In this document: piece after piece, positions 50,683-59,906 of the stretch
How the letters are laid out: each line of letters begins with the position of its first letter
Numbering within the stretch: the first letter of the stretch is position 1
NCBI GenBank assembly: GCA_963786935.1
Contig: CAWBAN010000001.1
Coordinates: 1,408,001 to 1,472,000, forward strand
Source of the DNA: an uncultured bacterium
GTDB taxonomy: Bacteria > Krumholzibacteriota > Krumholzibacteriia > Krumholzibacteriales > Krumholzibacteriaceae
Direction of reading: 5' to 3'
DNA: 64,000 nt
Notes under the pieces: model-generated
Seen by the model: the letters and a program-made list of their open reading frames with translations, nothing else
Databases searched by the model: none
What the model was told of the DNA's origin: nothing
Made by a program: the position numbers and the translations under genes

Positions 50683-52227
50683 TTACCGCCGGATTCTGCC
50701 GTTCAGAACGAGGTGCTCGACGTGCGAGACGACGTCCTGATCGAATTTCTCTCGCTGGCTCTTGAGCTGATCGATGCTCTCTTCAAGGGAATAGGCGCGC
50801 CGGTAGGGGCGATCGCTCGTCATGGCGTCGAAGCTGTCGGCCACGGCGACGATACGGGCCCCGAGGGAAATCTCGCTCCCCTTGAGGTGATCCGGGTAAC
50901 CCTTCCCGTCGAGCCGCTCGTGGTGATGGCGGACGAGGTCGCACGCCTGCTCGAGGAACTTCATGTTCTTGATGATATTCGCCCCGACCTCGGGATGGCT
51001 CCTGACGATGTCCCACTCCTGTTCGGTGAGCTCTCCCGGCTTGTTGAGAATGTTCTCGTACACGCCGAGCTTGCCGATGTCGTGGAGCGCGGCGCCGAAG
51101 CTCACGATCTCGACGTCGCGTTTCGGCAGATGCATCTCCTCGGCGATCATGCGGGCGTACTCGGCGACGCGGTCGGTGTGGCCCCGCGTGTACGCGTCCT
51201 TCGCCTCGATCGTCGAGACGAGCAGCTTGATCGTCGACAGGTAGGTCGCCTGCAGCTCGGCGTAGAGCCTCGCGTTTTCGAGGCCGGTCGCGGCCGACGT
51301 GCAGATCGACTTGAACAGCTCGAGCTCGTCGTGGGAATACTCCTGTCGGTTCACCTTTCCGCCGATGAACACGATCCCGATGAGCCGCGATTTCACGATG
51401 AGGGGATACCCGTAATCGAATCCGAAACGCGTGAGAAAATCAGCCTCGCGTTTCGCGTCCTCCGGGAACTCCGCGCCGCCGAGCCTGACGCACGCCTGCT
51501 TGCCGAGAAGATACGCCGACAGGGCGATCTCGCGCGAGAGCCGCACCGACTGGAGCACGCCGTTGGAAACGCTGCTGCCCCCCGCGTACGACAGGTAGCC
51601 GTCCATCTCGTCCAACGCGTAAAAGAGCGCCACCGAGCCCACGCCGAGCTGTCCGAGGACGGTCAGGCAGAAGACGCGGATGAGATCGTCGGGATCGCGG
51701 AGCCGGTTGAGATCCTGGCTGAGGCCCGACAGGGAGCGCATGTCGAGGACCTTCTTCTTGAGCTCGCGGTTGATCCGCGAATAATCGGCGTGCCCGCGGA
51801 GCACCTCCCCCTCGAGCTGCAGATTCTGCTCGCGGAGGTTGTTCTTGCGGCTCGCCTGTGCGAGGTAGTTCTCGATCTTGACGAGCATCTCCTTGAGGGA
51901 AAACGGCTTTTTGAGATAATCCTGCGCGCCCGCCCGAAGCCCCTTGACCATCGAATCCTGGATCGAATTCGCCGAAATCATGATAACCGGCACGTCGCGA
52001 TGGACGTCCCGCGCGCGGATCGAATCGCAGACCTCGAAGCCGTCCTTCCCGGGCAGCGCGACGTCGAGCACGACGAGATCCGGCTGGAAGCTGTCGTACT
52101 TCTCGAGCGCCGCGTCCCCGTCGGAGGCCGATTCGGTCGCGTACCCCTTGTTCCGCAGGCACTCGGTCAATATCTCGATGACGTTGGGGTCGTCGTCGAC
52201 GACCAGGATGCTTCCGTTGCCGCTCAC
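50683..52227 (-). CDS. REC-GAF-HD-GYP c-di-GMP phosphodiesterase response regulator
   Basis: VVDDD...LDVALP...KP receiver; GAF; YTRGH, LHDIGK, HHERLDGKGYP, VADSFDAM, RPY. Confidence 0.92.
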   Translation of the reverse strand: MSGNGSILVVDDDPNVIEILTECLRNKGYATESASDGDAALEKYDSFQPDLVVLDVALPGKDGFEVCDSIRARDVHRDVPVIMISANSIQDSMVKGLRAGAQDYLKKPFSLKEMLVKIENYLAQASRKNNLREQNLQLEGEVLRGHADYSRINRELKKKVLDMRSLSGLSQDLNRLRDPDDLIRVFCLTVLGQLGVGSVALFYALDEMDGYLSYAGGSSVSNGVLQSVRLSREIALSAYLLGKQACVRLGGAEFPEDAKREADFLTRFGFDYGYPLIVKSRLIGIVFIGGKVNRQEYSHDELELFKSICTSAATGLENARLYAELQATYLSTIKLLVSTIEAKDAYTRGHTDRVAEYARMIAEEMHLPKRDVEIVSFGAALHDIGKLGVYENILNKPGELTEQEWDIVRSHPEVGANIIKNMKFLEQACDLVRHHHERLDGKGYPDHLKGSEISLGARIVAVADSFDAMTSDRPYRRAYSLEESIDQLKSQREKFDQDVVSHVEHLVLNGRIRR

Positions 52228-52242
52228 GTGATCGATTTCCTC

Positions 52243-54054
52243 CTACGGCGTCGCCACGGTCTGGTACACCGATTGCGCTATTTCCTTCTCCATGATTCGC
52301 GCGAAATGCATGATGACCTCGCGGTCATACCGCAGCCCGTAATTCTCCTTGAGCGCGCCGAGCGCCTCGCGCTCCGAGAGCGCGGGTCTCGTCGGGCGCT
52401 CGTGTATCATCGCGGCGTAGCTCTCGATGACCGATATGATCCGCGAGCCGAGGGGGATTTCCTTGCCGCGCAGGCCGTACGGGTATCCCTCGCCGTTGAA
52501 CCGCTCGTGGTGCGTCCGCACGATGCCGATGACGTGATCGCTGAACTTCATCCGCGACAGCATCTCGGCCCCGTCCTCGGGGTGCCGCTTGATGATCTCC
52601 CACTCTTCCTTCGTGAGGTCGCGCGGGCTTCGCAGGATGAGGTCGCTCACCTTCACCATGCCCATGTCCCGGAGCACCGTGCCGTAGACCAGATCCTTGA
52701 AATGCTCCTCCGGATAATCCATGTTCTTCGCCACCATGCCCACGTATCGGGAGACGATCTCGGACGTCCCCTTGAGAAGCGTGTTTTCCTCGATGATCGA
52801 GATGAGCGTCTTGACGATGCCGAGCGTGCGTTCATGCTCCCGGTCGAACATCATCGCGTTGTCGTACGCCCCCTGGGCGATGTTGACGAGAATGCGCAGG
52901 AACTCGAAGTCCTCCTGCTTCATGCCTCTGCCGGCGATTCGCTTGCCGAGCAGCACGATTCCCGATATCCCGTCCTTCGTCCGGAACGGGCACACGTATT
53001 CGATTCCCTCGTTCTTGATGACGGCCCTGGCGCGCTCGTCCATCGGGAATCCGTCGACCGGGATCACGTTATTCTCCCCCGTCGCCTTCAGAATGGCGTC
53101 GGCGGGCACGTCGAGGCGCATGAGCGCATCGGGCTCGAAGCCCTTCGACATCGTCGGCTTGAAGGATTTCCCCTGATTTTCGAGAAATACGGCCGATTCG
53201 ACCCCCCCCTGCGCGATCGCGGTGAGGAGGAATATGTCGAGGAGCTTCCGGCGGTCCCAGATCGCGTTGAAATCGGCGCTGATCGAGAAGAGCGTCTTGA
53301 GCTCGAGGATGCGCCGCCGGAGCTGCCGGTTGAGATCGACGATCGCTTCGTCATCCTTTTTCTGCGGCGGCTGCTCGGCGGGCTTCCTTCCGGGCCCGCG
53401 GCTCAATGCGGGAAGCGCGGCGGCGGACGGCCCGCTGAATATCTCGGCGATGATCTCTTCGGCGTCCTCGTCGATTTCAGGATCGGCTGAAGCGGACGGA
53501 GCCGGTTCGGCCGGGCCCGGCTGCGATGCGGCGACGACGTTGTCGTACGGCATCAGGATCACGCCCGGCGCGGCGGGCGTCGGCGCGACGTCCGCGCTCG
53601 GCGCTGCATTCGGCGGCGCCGCGCTCACCGGCGGCGCTGCATTCGGCGGCGCGGGGCTCGCCGGAGCCGCGGCGGATTCCGCCGGGGCGCCCGCCCGGGT
53701 CGCGGACGGCTTGCCGGCGGCGTCGAGCGCTTCCGCGAGCGAGCGATGGATCGAAACGGACCGCTCGCCGTCCTGGAGGAATTGCGCGATGATGTCGTTC
53801 GTGACGGCGAACCGCACATCGCCGCCCTTCGAGACGAGCGCGTCGACGAAATCGCGGAGAATTTTGGCGACGCCGCCGCCGAGCGACGAGAGCTCGGAGA
53901 AATCGAAGATGACGGCGCGCAGATCCCGTTTGAGGCATTCCTCGACGAGGCGCTGCACCTTGGCGTTCTCGTGGAAGCCGAGCTTCCCCTCGATCCGGAA
54001 CGCGGCGACGCCCGGGATGCCTGATTCGACCCTTTCGAATTTCGTTCTCACCAT
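52243..54054 (-). CDS. STAS-like + Pro/Ala linker + GAF + degenerate HD-GYP protein
   Basis: STAS-like N-terminus; HHERFNGEGYP retained, but LRDMG replaces LHDIG and IESY replaces ADSF. Confidence 0.85.
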   Translation of the reverse strand: MVRTKFERVESGIPGVAAFRIEGKLGFHENAKVQRLVEECLKRDLRAVIFDFSELSSLGGGVAKILRDFVDALVSKGGDVRFAVTNDIIAQFLQDGERSVSIHRSLAEALDAAGKPSATRAGAPAESAAAPASPAPPNAAPPVSAAPPNAAPSADVAPTPAAPGVILMPYDNVVAASQPGPAEPAPSASADPEIDEDAEEIIAEIFSGPSAAALPALSRGPGRKPAEQPPQKKDDEAIVDLNRQLRRRILELKTLFSISADFNAIWDRRKLLDIFLLTAIAQGGVESAVFLENQGKSFKPTMSKGFEPDALMRLDVPADAILKATGENNVIPVDGFPMDERARAVIKNEGIEYVCPFRTKDGISGIVLLGKRIAGRGMKQEDFEFLRILVNIAQGAYDNAMMFDREHERTLGIVKTLISIIEENTLLKGTSEIVSRYVGMVAKNMDYPEEHFKDLVYGTVLRDMGMVKVSDLILRSPRDLTKEEWEIIKRHPEDGAEMLSRMKFSDHVIGIVRTHHERFNGEGYPYGLRGKEIPLGSRIISVIESYAAMIHERPTRPALSEREALGALKENYGLRYDREVIMHFARIMEKEIAQSVYQTVATP

Positions 54055-54079
54055 CGGATTGTTCCCTGCCGCGAAGCGG

Positions 54080-54322
54080 TCACTCAAGGACCTTGACCAC
54101 CTCTTCTTCCTGAGCGAGCCAGCGGTCGAGAACGCTCCTCAGGAAGCGCCATTCGCTTCCGACCTTCTTCGCCGGTATTTTCTTTTCCTTGGCCAGCCGG
54201 CAAACGGTCTTCACATGCATCTTGAGGTACTCCGCCGCCTCGACCGACGTCATGACCTCGGTCGCGTCGTCATGGCCTCCGATGATGATGCTGCCGTAAT
54301 CGTGCTGATGCTGACTAGACAT
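54080..54322 (-). CDS. Excisionase-family (HTH_17/BldC-like) DNA-binding protein
   Basis: VMTSVEAAEYLKMHVKTVCRLAKEKKIPAKKVGSEWRF; GAGGTGG SD. Confidence 0.88.
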   Translation of the reverse strand: MSSQHQHDYGSIIIGGHDDATEVMTSVEAAEYLKMHVKTVCRLAKEKKIPAKKVGSEWRFLRSVLDRWLAQEEEVVKVLE

Positions 54323-54378
54323 TGCCACCTCTCTCCGTTGGTGGTCCGACCTCGCCCCTGCCCGAGAGATCGGTCCGC

Positions 54379-55992
54379 TCATGAATGCACACGCGGGACC
54401 GTTACCTCCTGATCGCTCCCCTGCCCACCATCCTCGTATGTACCTGCTTCCTCCGGGCCGCCTTCGATGCCCCGAAGAGAGCTCGTGATTCGCAGCAGAA
54501 GATCCGTATCGATGATCGGGAACTCCTCTTCCCCGAGATTCAACGTCATGCGCGCAAGCGACGCCCATGATCCTTCCGTCACCTGTTCCGCGAGGCAATC
54601 GACCGTGCGGCCCGCGCCGTCGATGAGGAGGCCGAACCGCTTCTCGGCCCGGCCGATGACGAGCACGCGATCGGCCTTCCCGGACGACTCGAATTCGTCG
54701 ACCACGGCGATCTCCTCGAGCGCGTACACGGGCACGCGCCCGCCCGCGACGGTCACGGAGCGCCCCCCCGAATCGCGACCGGACTCGATCGCGTCCGTGC
54801 CGACCGTCGAATCGATCGCGTGCGCCGGCACGGCGATCTTCTTGCCCGACGCGTTGCAGATGCGGTAATCGGTCCTCCCGTTCGCGCGCGGGAGGGTGAA
54901 CATGAACCGCCCCTCGCTTCCACCCCCCGGCTCGATCCAAAGGAGCGAGCCGAATCCCTCGAGCCGGCTCCGGATTTCCCTGAAGCATGGATAGAACGCG
55001 CCCGCGTCGTCGCGGTCGATCTTCGAATCGCACAGGAAATCGGGGGCGTTGTCCTGTATCTTCACGACGAGGAACGAGCCCTCGGCCCGTATGTCGACGC
55101 CGATCGCGAGCGACAGGTCGTCGCGGACTTCGTTCCGCTTGCAGATATCGAATATGCACCTGATGAGCACGGCGGCGAGCGCGGTCGCGTTCTCGCGGTC
55201 GAGCGTGCATTCGACGCAGCGCGTCGCGAGCCGGGCGTTCCAGCGCCGGAGCTTCAGGTATGCGCCGAAGAAATCCTTCAGCCCGTCGAGCACGACATCG
55301 CCCGATATCCGCGCCGTGAAGGGCTTCGTGCTCTTTCCCACCATGCGCACCGTCTCCGCCGCGAGCCCCATGTAGAATTCGCTTTCGCCGAACGCCGCCT
55401 CGAGATCGCGCACCGACTTTTCCCCGCGGCTCGGCTTGTCGATGAACTCCTGGAACATGTCACGGACCGCGGCGAGCGATTCCATCAGCCGCGTGAACGT
55501 CGGAACGTGCTCCCGATCCGCCGCGCCGTCCTCCGCGGGACGTCTCTCGCCCGCCGGTGCGGGGGCGATCGTCAGCGTTTCCGCGGCCTGCTCCTGCGGC
55601 TCGTTCGTGAGGCACTCGATCTCTTTCAACAGGCCCTCGAACTGCTCGTGACGGCCGAGCTCCTCGAGCTCGCCCGCGAGAATCTCCGCGACGATCTGCT
55701 CCTCGATCTCGAGGATCTCCGATACGAGCGTGGCGAGCTGCTCGTCCCAGCACCGTCCCGCGGTCGCCGAGCGCTCCATGAGGTCGCGGAACGCCTTGAG
55801 CGTCCTGCTCCAATCGGCGAGCTCGAGCATGCGCGTGCTCCCCTCGAGGAGACGCGTCGAGAGGCATGCCCGGCGGATCGGCTGCTCGCCGAAGCGAGCG
55901 CCCGAGGAGAAGCCCATGAGGTCGTTGAGCTTCTCGATGTGGTCGTTGACCTGCTCGCCGAACAGACGCCTGTTATCTTCGTTCAGTATCAC
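54379..55992 (-). CDS. Degenerate CheA-like protein (Hpt-like, HATPase-like, CheW domain)
   Basis: Hpt-like RLLEGSTRMLEL; IQDN...GRFMFTLP; CheW-like IAVP...RVPVY...GLLID; start GTG 55992 or TTG 55995. Confidence 0.75.
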   Translation of the reverse strand: MILNEDNRRLFGEQVNDHIEKLNDLMGFSSGARFGEQPIRRACLSTRLLEGSTRMLELADWSRTLKAFRDLMERSATAGRCWDEQLATLVSEILEIEEQIVAEILAGELEELGRHEQFEGLLKEIECLTNEPQEQAAETLTIAPAPAGERRPAEDGAADREHVPTFTRLMESLAAVRDMFQEFIDKPSRGEKSVRDLEAAFGESEFYMGLAAETVRMVGKSTKPFTARISGDVVLDGLKDFFGAYLKLRRWNARLATRCVECTLDRENATALAAVLIRCIFDICKRNEVRDDLSLAIGVDIRAEGSFLVVKIQDNAPDFLCDSKIDRDDAGAFYPCFREIRSRLEGFGSLLWIEPGGGSEGRFMFTLPRANGRTDYRICNASGKKIAVPAHAIDSTVGTDAIESGRDSGGRSVTVAGGRVPVYALEEIAVVDEFESSGKADRVLVIGRAEKRFGLLIDGAGRTVDCLAEQVTEGSWASLARMTLNLGEEEFPIIDTDLLLRITSSLRGIEGGPEEAGTYEDGGQGSDQEVTVPRVHS

Positions 55993-56005
55993 CAAGCGGC
56001 GCACC

Positions 56006-57880
56006 TCATCTCTGTACCGGGCTCTCCTCGACGTACTCGACGGCGCCGAGGTCGAAAAGATCGTGAACGGGATCGTCGTCGCGTTTTTCGGCGGCCGGCG
56101 TCGATTCCGCGGCCGGCTCGAACGCGACTTCGGGCTCTTCACGCGGCGTTGCGGGCGCCGCCGCCTGCACCGTGACGTCCACCTGCCCCGCATCTTCCTC
56201 CACGTCCGCCTTCTCGACTTCCACGGTGCGCCATGCGCGCTCGGACGCGCCGTCGAGATTCCTCAGGGACGTCATATCGGAAAAATCGGACGATTGTTTC
56301 TCTCGCGGCTGCTCGGTCTGCGGCTTCGGCTCCGTTTTCCGCTCGGGTTCCGCCGCCTGCGCGAACGCCGCCCTCATCTCGTCGAGATTCTCGAACGAAA
56401 AGCTCTGCTCCTCGCCGGCGCCGCCCGCGGCCGTTTCGCGGGACGCTCCCCGCGCGCCCACACCGCCCCACGACGAGCCGTGATCGATAACGAGGCCGGC
56501 ATCGTCCGCCGAATCGGCGGCGGGAGCCGTGTCGGCCGCGACGGGCCGCGCATCCGGAGCGCTCGCCGGTTCGGCCGCGGCGGCCGGCCGCGATTCCTTC
56601 CGCCCGTCTCCCAGCAGAAGCTCGTGCACGTCGTGCAGCTCGCTTCCGAGACCCATGATCCGCGTTTCGAGCGCGGCGCTTCGCCCTTCGATCCGCCGCG
56701 CGATTTCCACGATGGCGCCGGAAACGTCCGCGCCGACGGGTGGCCCGTCGACGTCGGCGGACATGCCGGAACACTCTTTGATCGCGTAGCAGTTACCGAG
56801 AAGCCCCTGGGCGATGGTCGAAACGCCGCCGCTCAGCTTATGGAAGCGCTCGGCGGTCGAGCGAACGCGCTCCGCGAACGTCGCCAGGGCGTGCTCGTCC
56901 ACGTCGCCGCGCGCCGCCATGAGCGCGAGCTGTATCGCGATCCCGTTGTTTTCCTCGGAGAACTCGTGCAGCGCGCGGCCGCCTTCCTCGAGCTTGCGGA
57001 CGGCGCCTTCCATGTCGACGACGGTCGACTTGAGCGTTCCCTTCCGCGAGCCGGCTGCGTCCTTCGGAGCCGCCGCGCGCCCTCGGGCGTCGGCGCCGAT
57101 GCGCTCCGCGACGCTCGTGAGCTCGGCGACGGCGTTCGTGATCGCGAGCAGCTCTTCTCCGGCGCCGCTGATCGCCTCCATCGCCTTGCCGTAGGCGAGG
57201 GCGGCCTGGCCGTACGCCCGGCGCTCCCGCGCGTTCCGCTGTTCCAGCTCCGCGATGCGCGCGCGGTCGGTTTCGACGCGATCGCGCAGCTTGTCGTAAA
57301 TCGAACCGGCGTCGCTCCCCTCGGGCGCGTCCCCCGCGGCGGCGTTTCCGCCGAGCAGGCTCTCGATCTCCGATTTGAGGTCGGCGTAGTTCGACACGGT
57401 GTCCTTCGTCCCGAGATCCTGGGAAATCTCGCGAATCTGATCGCCGTAGCTCCGCAGCACCGCCTGAAGCTCGGGATACGGGGAGAGCCGCGCGATCTGC
57501 GCCGGATTCGTGAGATCGTCGATGCTTTCGGCGAGCGATATCATCGAGCGGTAGTCCTGCCCCGAGTCGAGATAGAATTTATAGCGATGCACCGCGGACG
57601 CGATGAGGAAATACGCGAAGAGAGAAACGATGACGACGGCCGCCGCGAGCGGCGCCATGTCGTTGACGAAGAGCATCGAATTGACGGTCCAGCCGCTCGT
57701 CCCCGACTCGATCCACTTGAGATCGACGTCGTAGAAGCTCACGAGGTAATACCCCACCCCAAGGCTCATGAACACAAGAAGAAGAGACACGAATATCCCT
57801 ATTTTCCAGGGCGACGTGAGGACCGGCCGCTTGCTCCCGCCCCCGTTCTTCTTCGCCTTCGACTTCTTGTTCTTCTTCAC
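56006..57880 (-). CDS. Membrane MCP-like protein with degenerate signalling hairpin
   Basis: Two TM helices; EENNGIAIQLALMAARGD...ATFAERVRSTAER resembles the MCP tip; acidic low-complexity tail ending LFDLGAVEY; GTG start after AAGGAG. Confidence 0.75.
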   Translation of the reverse strand: MKKNKKSKAKKNGGGSKRPVLTSPWKIGIFVSLLLVFMSLGVGYYLVSFYDVDLKWIESGTSGWTVNSMLFVNDMAPLAAAVVIVSLFAYFLIASAVHRYKFYLDSGQDYRSMISLAESIDDLTNPAQIARLSPYPELQAVLRSYGDQIREISQDLGTKDTVSNYADLKSEIESLLGGNAAAGDAPEGSDAGSIYDKLRDRVETDRARIAELEQRNARERRAYGQAALAYGKAMEAISGAGEELLAITNAVAELTSVAERIGADARGRAAAPKDAAGSRKGTLKSTVVDMEGAVRKLEEGGRALHEFSEENNGIAIQLALMAARGDVDEHALATFAERVRSTAERFHKLSGGVSTIAQGLLGNCYAIKECSGMSADVDGPPVGADVSGAIVEIARRIEGRSAALETRIMGLGSELHDVHELLLGDGRKESRPAAAAEPASAPDARPVAADTAPAADSADDAGLVIDHGSSWGGVGARGASRETAAGGAGEEQSFSFENLDEMRAAFAQAAEPERKTEPKPQTEQPREKQSSDFSDMTSLRNLDGASERAWRTVEVEKADVEEDAGQVDVTVQAAAPATPREEPEVAFEPAAESTPAAEKRDDDPVHDLFDLGAVEYVEESPVQR

Positions 57881-57973
57881 CTTTATCTCCTTCATCGTCA
57901 TATGCAACACGAACGGTCCGGTTCGCTCTTCCGGCGTTCAGAAAGCTCGTAATTCGTGGTCGATGCGGCAGTT

Positions 57974-57989
57974 CGCAAGTATTATGCCA
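57974..57989 (-). promoter_or_regulatory. sigma54 (-24/-12) promoter of the MCP-like operon
   Basis: Minus strand TGGCAT-AATAC-TTGCG (GG-N10-GC). Confidence 0.75.
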
Positions 57990-59042: not shown

Positions 59043-59058
59043 TGGCATGGAGCTTGCA
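59043..59058 (+). promoter_or_regulatory. sigma54 (-24/-12) promoter
   Basis: TGGCAT-GGAGC-TTGCA. Confidence 0.75.
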
Positions 59059-59114
59059 CGAATCGAGGCGGATATCGGTTCATGCATCGTGCGCTGCATC
59101 AGGAGCGAAGCACC

Positions 59115-59906
59115 ATGGCGGTCGCGACACTGCATACGTTTCCCGGCGCCCCGCGGCAGATCTCGCCTCAGGAAGCGTACTTCTTCATGATGAACGCCCT
59201 CCTCCACAGCAGGATGGAGGCGGGCTTCCCGTCGAACGACGACTGCTTCGACGAAGACGTGAACGTCTATCTCGCGGGGCTGCTTGCGTCCCTCGTGTAT
59301 CCGCTGCGCGAGGCGGACAGGACGCGCGGCACGCCCTGCGGAGACGCGTCTCTCTTCGAAGCGGCGGGCGCGGCGGCCGGGACGAGGGAACGATTCGACC
59401 TGTACCGGCGCGCCGGCGATTCGCTTCTCGTGTCGCTCGGCATCTTCAAGAACGCGCGCTCGAGGCGGCCCGACTCGGTGCCGCACCTCGCGCTGAGCGA
59501 CGCGGCCCACATCGGCCGGGGAAAGGCGTACTACGCGATCGCGCGCGCCTACGCCGCGCAGATCCACCGCCGGAACACCGCGATCGGCGAGGTGCTCGGG
59601 AAGCTCTCGGATAATTTCGAACGGTACCTCGGCGTCCTCTCCCTCATGGGGGGAGAGCACCTCAACATCTTCAAACAGCTCTCGCAGGGGGAGCTCTATC
59701 ATCTCGAGAGCGCGCCGCGGCCGGTCGAACGGAGCGCGGATCTCGCGGCCCGGTACGACCGGTTCCTCGATCGGTATTCCGTATACCTGCGGGATAAATC
59801 GGCTTCCGCGCGGGATGCGCTCGTCGCGGCCGTCGAGGGAGTCCGGGAGATGGATCCCTCGTTCTCGTTCGATCTCGACGCGCGGGAGCGCGTCAGCCCT
59901 GCTTGA
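59115..59906 (+). CDS. Helical hypothetical protein
   Basis: AGGAG SD, typical codon bias; YLAGLL...YRRAGDSLL..LGIF...GKAYY. Confidence 0.75.
   Translation: MAVATLHTFPGAPRQISPQEAYFFMMNALLHSRMEAGFPSNDDCFDEDVNVYLAGLLASLVYPLREADRTRGTPCGDASLFEAAGAAAGTRERFDLYRRAGDSLLVSLGIFKNARSRRPDSVPHLALSDAAHIGRGKAYYAIARAYAAQIHRRNTAIGEVLGKLSDNFERYLGVLSLMGGEHLNIFKQLSQGELYHLESAPRPVERSADLAARYDRFLDRYSVYLRDKSASARDALVAAVEGVREMDPSFSFDLDARERVSPA

Follow-up and report, generated by a model that had tools for sequence, protein, structure and literature searches.

The stretch of DNA analysed here (the window; 64,000 nucleotides, positions 1,408,001 to 1,472,000 of contig CAWBAN010000001.1 in assembly GCA_963786935.1) comes from an uncultured bacterium of the phylum Krumholzibacteriota. 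At 50683-57901, on the minus strand, it contains an operon of five genes that encode, in order, a receptor-like membrane protein, a CheA-like protein (pseudo-CheA), a small helix-turn-helix (HTH) protein, a STAS-linker-GAF-pseudo-HD-GYP protein and a REC-GAF-HD-GYP protein. The operon descends from a chemosensory pathway, yet by the features that define these classes its products are neither a CheA kinase nor a methyl-accepting receptor, and do not make up a pathway of the Wsp type. The reading that we tentatively favour, at somewhat short of even confidence, is that the operon specifies a membrane-anchored scaffold of catalytically dead, chemotaxis-derived proteins that gates an intact phosphodiesterase. 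The initial annotation, made from the sequence alone, had read the five products as an MCP-like protein with a degenerate tip, a CheA-like protein lacking the phospho-accepting His, an Xis-like HTH protein, a STAS-GAF-pseudo-HD-GYP protein and an intact REC-GAF-HD-GYP protein; all of these assignments held, the MCP hairpin being recovered by profile and the CheA fold by structural model and Foldseek.

A CheA fold without kinase residues

Pseudo-CheA (gene 2; 54379..56004, minus strand, 541 aa) consists of a P1 bundle, a disordered linker replacing P2, and domains P3, P4 and a CheW-like P5. Taken alone, the sequence has CheW as its sole Pfam match, and apart from that match both chemotaxis-like proteins of the operon were missed by single-sequence searches of Pfam, NCBIfam and the PDB, so that profiles were needed. 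A profile of 47 sequences matched P4-P5 of Thermotoga maritima CheA with an E-value of 1.6e-12. The AlphaFold model (pLDDT 82) displays a five-helix P1, a two-helix P3 hairpin, P4 and P5, and the eight best Foldseek matches to this model are all CheA chains (top E 5e-14). Profile, model and Foldseek thus agree on the P1-P3-P4-P5 fold of CheA. The profile A1, searched against the PDB, found receiver domains only among the 60 matches listed.

The residues tell a different story from the fold. The phospho-His position of P1 is Arg51 in the window's protein, and among 63 full-length homologues it is Arg in 38, Lys in 14 and His in one. None of the 63 has the N-box Asn, and 62 retain the G1 Asp. 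The ATP lid, measured from G1 to G2, spans 22 residues, against 54 in the real CheA of the same genome. Both the phospho-His and the N/G1/F/G2 set of Mg-ATP boxes that mark a CheA are therefore wanting, and gene 2 is, as far as its residues tell, a CheA by descent and fold and not a kinase. Because of the His count, the missing N-box Asn and the shortened lid, a phosphorelay through pseudo-CheA is excluded on sequence grounds. The sole homologue with a P1 His, P0050, gives a weak Hpt match and also lacks the N-box Asn. Homologues outside the window's order carry a C-terminal receiver that the window's protein does not have; its acidic pocket is broken, and 25 of 45 have Glu in place of the phospho-Asp. 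The degeneracy accordingly reaches beyond what had been annotated, taking in the N-box, the ATP lid, the phospho-Ser of the STAS domain described below and, in most lineages, the C-terminal receiver of pseudo-CheA.

The receptor-like protein

Gene 1 (56006..57901, minus strand, 631 aa) encodes a protein with two transmembrane helices flanking a very short periplasmic loop, no sensor domain, a conserved juxtamembrane stretch and a region assigned by eye as HAMP-like. A cytoplasmic MCP signalling hairpin was recovered by a profile match to a T. maritima MCP (E 5e-9), relatives scoring under the Pfam cut-off, and neighbours of the protein in the Atlas are mostly MCP clusters; the hairpin was undetected in the receptor-like proteins of family f5. 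Its tip (56831..56980, minus strand; about residues 308-357) is substituted relative to the canonical MCP of the same genome and varies between families, so the conserved tip through which MCPs bind CheA and CheW and make trimer contacts is not preserved. The methylation consensus occurs in 2 of 32 orthologues, compared with three sites in the genome's canonical MCP, so that recognisable methylation sites are mostly missing as well. Behind a long acidic linker the protein ends in a conserved C-terminal peptide, [IV]xDLx[ED][LF]GAV (56036..56068, minus strand), a candidate docking tether. It is present in one copy in the window's protein and in two or three copies in many proteins of families f4 and f8, and its L and A are invariant in 36 of 36. 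By eye, the peptide (L-x-x-L-G-A-V-E-Y) is similar to the alpha4-beta5 segment of receiver domains.

A dead and an intact HD-GYP protein

Genes 4 (52243..54087, minus strand; orthologues suggest an ATG at 54054) and 5 (50683..52227, minus strand) encode paralogous GAF-HD-GYP proteins about 30% identical to each other, with an architecture closest to that of PmGH. All 36 orthologues of gene 5 keep the metal ligands (E, H, HD, H, HHE, D) and the GYP motif, and 35 keep the second Arg of RxxR, so that the residues of an active HD-GYP enzyme are all in place. The phospho-Asp of its receiver is found in 33 of 36 sequences; the receiver is intact in the window's order and degenerate in f4, f5 and, partly, f8. 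Gene 5 is accordingly predicted to be an active cyclic-dinucleotide phosphodiesterase, PmGH-like, with c-di-GMP as its probable substrate and cGAMP as another possibility.

The HD motif of gene 4 instead reads RD, with Arg replacing His in 40 of 40 sequences; Glu replaces the Asp of the AD motif in 38 of 40, the first His survives in one of 40 and HHE is kept in all. Lacking the HD motif and the first His, gene 4 does not have the make-up of an active HD-GYP enzyme. Its STAS domain is similarly altered: the position of the SpoIIAA phospho-Ser is Gly in 39 of 44 sequences and Ser in none, so the D-S-S-G signature of anti-anti-sigma factors is missing. Phosphorylation of this STAS domain by P4 was considered and rejected, because the Ser of the one and the N-box Asn of the other are both missing. 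Orthologues of gene 4 at four loci in f4, f5 and f8 (L048, L050, L120 and L147) are 720-780 aa long, with an extra middle region lacking a clear Pfam match.

The HTH protein

Gene 3 (54080..54322, minus strand, 80 aa) encodes an Xis/MerR-like HTH_17 protein, assigned to the excisionase type by Pfam and NCBIfam. It bears none of the marks of a mobile-element excisionase, being a single-copy gene with housekeeping neighbours. In a survey of 181 genomes of the phylum, each at least 80% complete, it was found once per genome in 175, and in 124 of 125 high-quality genomes; 31 columns are invariant in 45 sequences. The BldC model scores 12.6 bits against it (cut-off 77; E 0.09), and no PDB sequence matched it. 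A second sigma-54 motif stands directly before the gene in 45 of 45 loci of families f4, f6, f7, f8 and f9, and in none of 35 loci of the window's order and f5. The HTH gene is thus a near-universal core component, with its own promoter motif in most lineages, and it is co-expressed with the operon but works without the other parts in some lineages.

Two observations concern the DNA ahead of this gene. In 23 of 31 loci of the window's order a CCGCGTG-like word (about 54383-54389 in the window, minus strand) precedes the gene, sometimes past the upstream stop codon, where other families carry the sigma-54 motif; it may be a regulator site. The lone HTH genes of f7 (L140-L146) have a leader of 120-170 nt behind the promoter, with blocks conserved within genera, possibly a structured RNA leader.

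Operon structure and promoter

Open reading frame analysis of the window found the five co-oriented frames uninterrupted, with gaps from gene 1 to gene 5 of 1 nt, 56 nt, an overlap or at most 25 nt, and 15 nt. Neither the list of reading frames nor domain searches of the window's proteins disclosed a cheY, cheR, cheB or cheW inside the operon. Upstream lies the sequence TGGCATAATACTTGC (57975..57989, minus strand), which agrees with the -24/-12 consensus of sigma-54 promoters. The pattern matches twice in the window, where 0.05 matches are expected, and it recurs within 500 nt upstream of the operon in 51 of 53 related loci, against a background of 0.055 per 500 nt; one of the two remaining loci offers just 64 nt of upstream sequence. 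The genome encodes rpoN (sigma-54). The close packing of the genes, the promoter and the lack of cheY, cheR, cheB and cheW, all claimed at the outset, are borne out by these results. A genome-wide scan gave 37 sigma-54 matches, compared with 8-34 for controls with a wrong spacer. Sigma-54-like motifs also lie upstream of a type IV pilin gene, pilM, a GGDEF gene and cheR, those at the pilin gene and pilM being near-perfect.

Distribution, losses and selection

In the 181 genomes the HTH gene is followed in frequency by the dead HD-GYP gene (147), the receptor-like gene (141), full-length pseudo-CheA (96) and the active phosphodiesterase (91). The figure of 147 comes from a GAF-dead-HD profile and may include the paralogue in a few low-scoring, fragmented genomes; that of 141 is also a profile count, and two f5 genomes scored as misses do carry the gene in their loci. 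All 92 genomes from seven families have full-length pseudo-CheA (E < 1e-40), as do four f4 genomes, confirmed at the locus; other weak matches in f4 and f7 resemble canonical CheA, though not each was checked. Of 80 loci examined, 60 picked by a pseudo-CheA match and 20 by an HTH gene in genomes without one, 54 have the five genes in order. The cluster is therefore conserved across the phylum, and its orthologues share the lack of catalytic residues.

Losses of the parts are nested. Of 78 f4 genomes, 56 carry the dead HD-GYP gene, and 55 of these 56 also carry the receptor-like gene, which no other f4 genome has; full pseudo-CheA and the phosphodiesterase occur in the same four; in f7, receptor-like and dead HD-GYP genes are both missing from 11 of 11 genomes. 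The receptor-like protein thus tracks the dead HD-GYP protein, and not pseudo-CheA or the phosphodiesterase. The phosphodiesterase, in turn, was found solely in genomes with full-length pseudo-CheA. Eight reduced f4 loci retain the receptor-like gene: four of them encode a fusion of P1 to a receiver without P4-P5, one a P1-like frame (recognised by eye, its profile score not being significant), and three nothing of pseudo-CheA. Other f4 loci keep just the HTH gene and a STAS protein, and seven of seven f7 loci the HTH gene alone. Two simpler descriptions were abandoned on this evidence: that f4 and f7 lack the system, since reduced forms are present, and that pseudo-CheA is wholly absent from the reduced f4 loci, since four of the eight retain the P1-receiver fusion. 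In one genome, G182, both HD-GYP genes lie far from the other parts of the operon.

Selection on the domains was estimated as domain dN over gene dS. Against L074, the closest relative tested, dN/dS was 0.11 for P1, 0.14 for P4, 0.35 for P5, 0.09 for the receptor tip, 0.15 for STAS, 0.03 for the dead HD domain and 0.05 for the active one, with the linker of the STAS protein near 1; neighbouring housekeeping genes gave 0.07-0.27. Four further pairs gave the same ranking, P5 being least constrained (0.32-0.47), and the value for the tip was about 0.09-0.14 in the four closest pairs and 0.49 in the fifth. With dN/dS well below 1, the dead domains are under purifying selection and are not decaying, in agreement with what the initial annotation had concluded from the intact frames.

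The genome also has a canonical chemotaxis system. Contig C3 carries a complete che cluster apart from the operon (L117:7960-17960), with cheR, an MCP gene, cheW, cheD, cheB, cheA, cheC and cheY, several of these names being read from motifs; its cheA carries the His. This cluster has a sigma-54-like motif ahead of it and a TPR protein after it, and is conserved across the order. Canonical CheW occurs in the window's genome and in nearly all of its order. In five relatives that are 96-100% complete (G052, G053, G055, G057 and G058) the operon is present and neither a canonical MCP nor a canonical CheW was matched, so the operon does not depend on working chemotaxis. Among other relevant genes the window's genome has four GGDEF matches (one partial), eight HD-GYP-type matches and PilB/PilT-type ATPases, and flagellin found no match in it.

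Proposed mechanism and alternatives

The presence pattern is best matched by a tether in the membrane that has the STAS-GAF-dead-HD protein as its lasting partner. In the mechanism that we propose, the receptor-like protein would hold this dead protein at the membrane, perhaps by way of its C-terminal peptide. The dead HD-GYP protein and the P1 bundle of pseudo-CheA would then position and gate the intact phosphodiesterase, with pseudo-CheA, mainly through P1, serving as the adaptor on which the active enzyme depends. A dimer of a dead and an active HD-GYP subunit is likely, and c-di-GMP would be lowered locally. Gene order, promoter motifs, folds, missing catalytic residues, purifying selection and nested presence are what the data show. 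Each physical contact in the scheme is inferred, and so are the tethering role of the peptide, the pairing of a dead with an active subunit, the involvement of c-di-GMP, whether as substrate or as ligand, and a connection to type IV pilus behaviour. The dead parts would thus position or regulate the phosphodiesterase, much as the initial annotation had suggested. HD-GYP proteins dimerise via a stalk, and the metal-free HD-GYP protein DvhD, a precedent for gene 4, is a c-di-GMP receptor (PMC13090378; PDB 9RBZ). As a second precedent, CheA of Pseudomonas aeruginosa localises the c-di-GMP phosphodiesterase Pch (DipA) (PMC3861689), and the operon would be alike in having a chemotaxis protein position a phosphodiesterase.

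Several points weigh against this proposal. In P. aeruginosa, control of Pch needs His49 of CheA, and an active pathway (PMC3861689); pseudo-CheA lacks the His, and the operon supplies a dedicated dead paralogue that distinguishes it from the Pch-CheA system. Of the DvhD contacts to c-di-GMP, the equivalents of L577, the GYP Tyr and M646 are mostly kept in gene 4, but R650 is Arg in 21 of 40 sequences, Y652 is Tyr in 15 of 40 and E668 is mostly Asn. Receptor-like and dead HD-GYP proteins persist in about 50 f4 genomes without the phosphodiesterase, so that gating cannot be their only job, and four f8 genomes keep pseudo-CheA and are missing the phosphodiesterase. Since the receiver of gene 5 is intact in the window's order, an outside kinase could control the phosphodiesterase without any scaffold. 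The presence counts are not independent tests, since a rough tree built from 45 loci (with the short row L053 wrongly placed) finds the complete operon on either side of its main split and points to only about four independent losses. A sigma-54 regulon common to the operon and the pilus genes is weakly supported by the motifs, and it is not relied on here because the genome-wide matches barely exceed the wrong-spacer controls.

It is tempting to see the HTH protein as the effector of the system, with the STAS domain and the membrane complex sequestering or releasing it depending on whether the dead HD-GYP domain has bound c-di-GMP, and the phosphodiesterase acting as an accessory reset. That the HTH gene is the sole near-universal part, that a STAS-only protein remains directly behind it when the rest has been lost (L148-L150 and L156), and that its own sigma-54 motif marks HTH and STAS as a unit would all suit such a transcriptional output. 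The HTH gene stands alone, however, with nearly unchanged sequence, in the seven f7 loci and in L159, so it needs no such partners, and neither a binding site nor a contact for it was found; we regard this explanation as unlikely. A bolder combination is a new kind of signalling machine, a chemosensory pathway without phosphochemistry in which the receptor-derived membrane protein captures a dead HD-GYP c-di-GMP sensor by its repeated peptide, and this sensor pairs with the phosphodiesterase through the His-less Hpt bundle and releases the HTH protein. It would have a relative in Eisenbacteria, where the link consists of one Atlas cluster (score 0.95); taken whole it is rather doubtful. The retention of the MCP hairpin and of the CheA P3-P4-P5 folds, the spacing of a single nucleotide between the two genes, the purifying selection on the tip and the availability of canonical CheW might instead point to an allosteric array of the chemoreceptor type, in which receptor tips bind P5 of pseudo-CheA, perhaps with CheW borrowed from the canonical che cluster, and a membrane signal reaches the phosphodiesterase. 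This we consider quite unlikely: contact between tip and P5 is weakened as an explanation because no domain is less constrained than P5, because P5 has gone along with P4 from reduced f4 loci that keep the receptor-like gene, and because CheW is not needed, as the five near-complete genomes attest; the hairpin, moreover, was undetected in f5.

Another alternative is that the genes share sigma-54 control and act mostly separately, with the phosphodiesterase as an ordinary response regulator under an outside kinase and the dead proteins in a different, structural role, for example as a polar landmark. The phospho-Asp of gene 5, the separate loss of parts and the distant HD-GYP genes of G182 all speak for it, and the layout of the receptor-like protein (transmembrane segment, coiled coil, acidic tail and terminal motif) resembles that of polar hub proteins. 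Yet the gene order is held in 54 of the 80 loci, the phosphodiesterase was never found without full pseudo-CheA, and the gene 5 receiver is degenerate in f4, f5 and partly f8, which together render separate action distinctly unlikely. Finally, the stepwise deletions in f4 and f7 and the low identity between families might suggest that the operon is what remains of a Wsp-like chemosensory system, decaying and no longer of any use. Such decay is highly improbable, and largely refuted by the dN/dS values, which lie far below 1; the frames are open, the replacement residues invariant and the promoters conserved, and pseudo-CheA is full-length throughout the seven families.

Neighbouring genes

The operon is flanked by a nitrilase-family gene and a convergent dacA-like gene. 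The second sigma-54 motif of the window (59043-59057, plus strand) precedes a gene for a 274-aa protein (59082-59906, plus strand) without a Pfam match, which lies near the operon in 33 of 45 loci, including four of the seven f7 loci with HTH only. Elsewhere in the genome, a 371-aa protein (L160:1-1113; contig C1:550831) is encoded behind a sigma-54-like motif; it has no NCBIfam match at 1e-12, and its N-terminus resembles the MglA GTPase, judging from a motif.

Comparison with known systems

The Wsp system of Pseudomonas comprises the receptor WspA, the CheA-REC hybrid WspE and the output protein WspR. Like it, the operon brings together a single receptor, a c-di-GMP enzyme fused to REC and, in most lineages, a hybrid of CheA and REC. 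It differs from Wsp in its degenerate kinase and receiver, in having as output an HD-GYP phosphodiesterase accompanied by a dead paralogue instead of a cyclase, in lacking CheW and methylation enzymes, and in including an HTH gene. The active CheA and CheW, with receptor and response regulator, that characterise chemosensory pathways of the Wsp or ACF type are not what the operon encodes. With the MCP-CheA-CheW core unit of T. maritima and Escherichia coli (PDB 1B3Q, 2CH4, 8C5V) it has in common the MCP hairpin and the P1-P3-P4-P5 order, and it differs in having no phospho-His, N-box Asn, P2, CheW, CheR, CheB, CheY or sensor domain, in its short ATP lid, in the mostly missing methylation consensus and in the dispensability of P5. 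The HTH protein resembles the small BldC/Xis-like regulators as a standalone, chromosomal, phylum-conserved HTH_17 protein of about 70-80 aa, its score against the BldC model being no better than the E-value of 0.09 given above.

In V-cGAP3 the degenerate HD-GYP domain has a regulatory role. There (PDB 5Z7C) the degenerate and the intact domain share one chain, whereas here they are encoded by separate genes and bear STAS and REC heads. PmGH (PDB 4MCW) has the GAF-HD-GYP architecture of genes 4 and 5. The substitutions of DvhD (PMC13090378) are SQ and MN, as against RD with HHE kept in gene 4. The suggestion that the system might be undescribed also stands: no description of the operon was found in a search of non-subscription literature, judged from titles and the beginnings of abstracts.

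CheA autophosphorylation is what defines chemosensory pathways. Finding that selection maintains, in most of a phylum, a kinase-dead CheA alongside a receptor-like protein would demonstrate that chemotaxis architecture can be put to a contact-based use. The natural deletion series provides small testable units, namely the P1-receiver mini-protein, the receptor with the dead HD-GYP protein, HTH with STAS, and HTH alone, while the pair of dead and active GAF-HD-GYP proteins offers a clean system in which to study how a pseudo-enzyme might control the breakdown of c-di-GMP. For the uncultured phylum Krumholzibacteriota itself, the HTH protein represents a near-universal, single-copy regulator.

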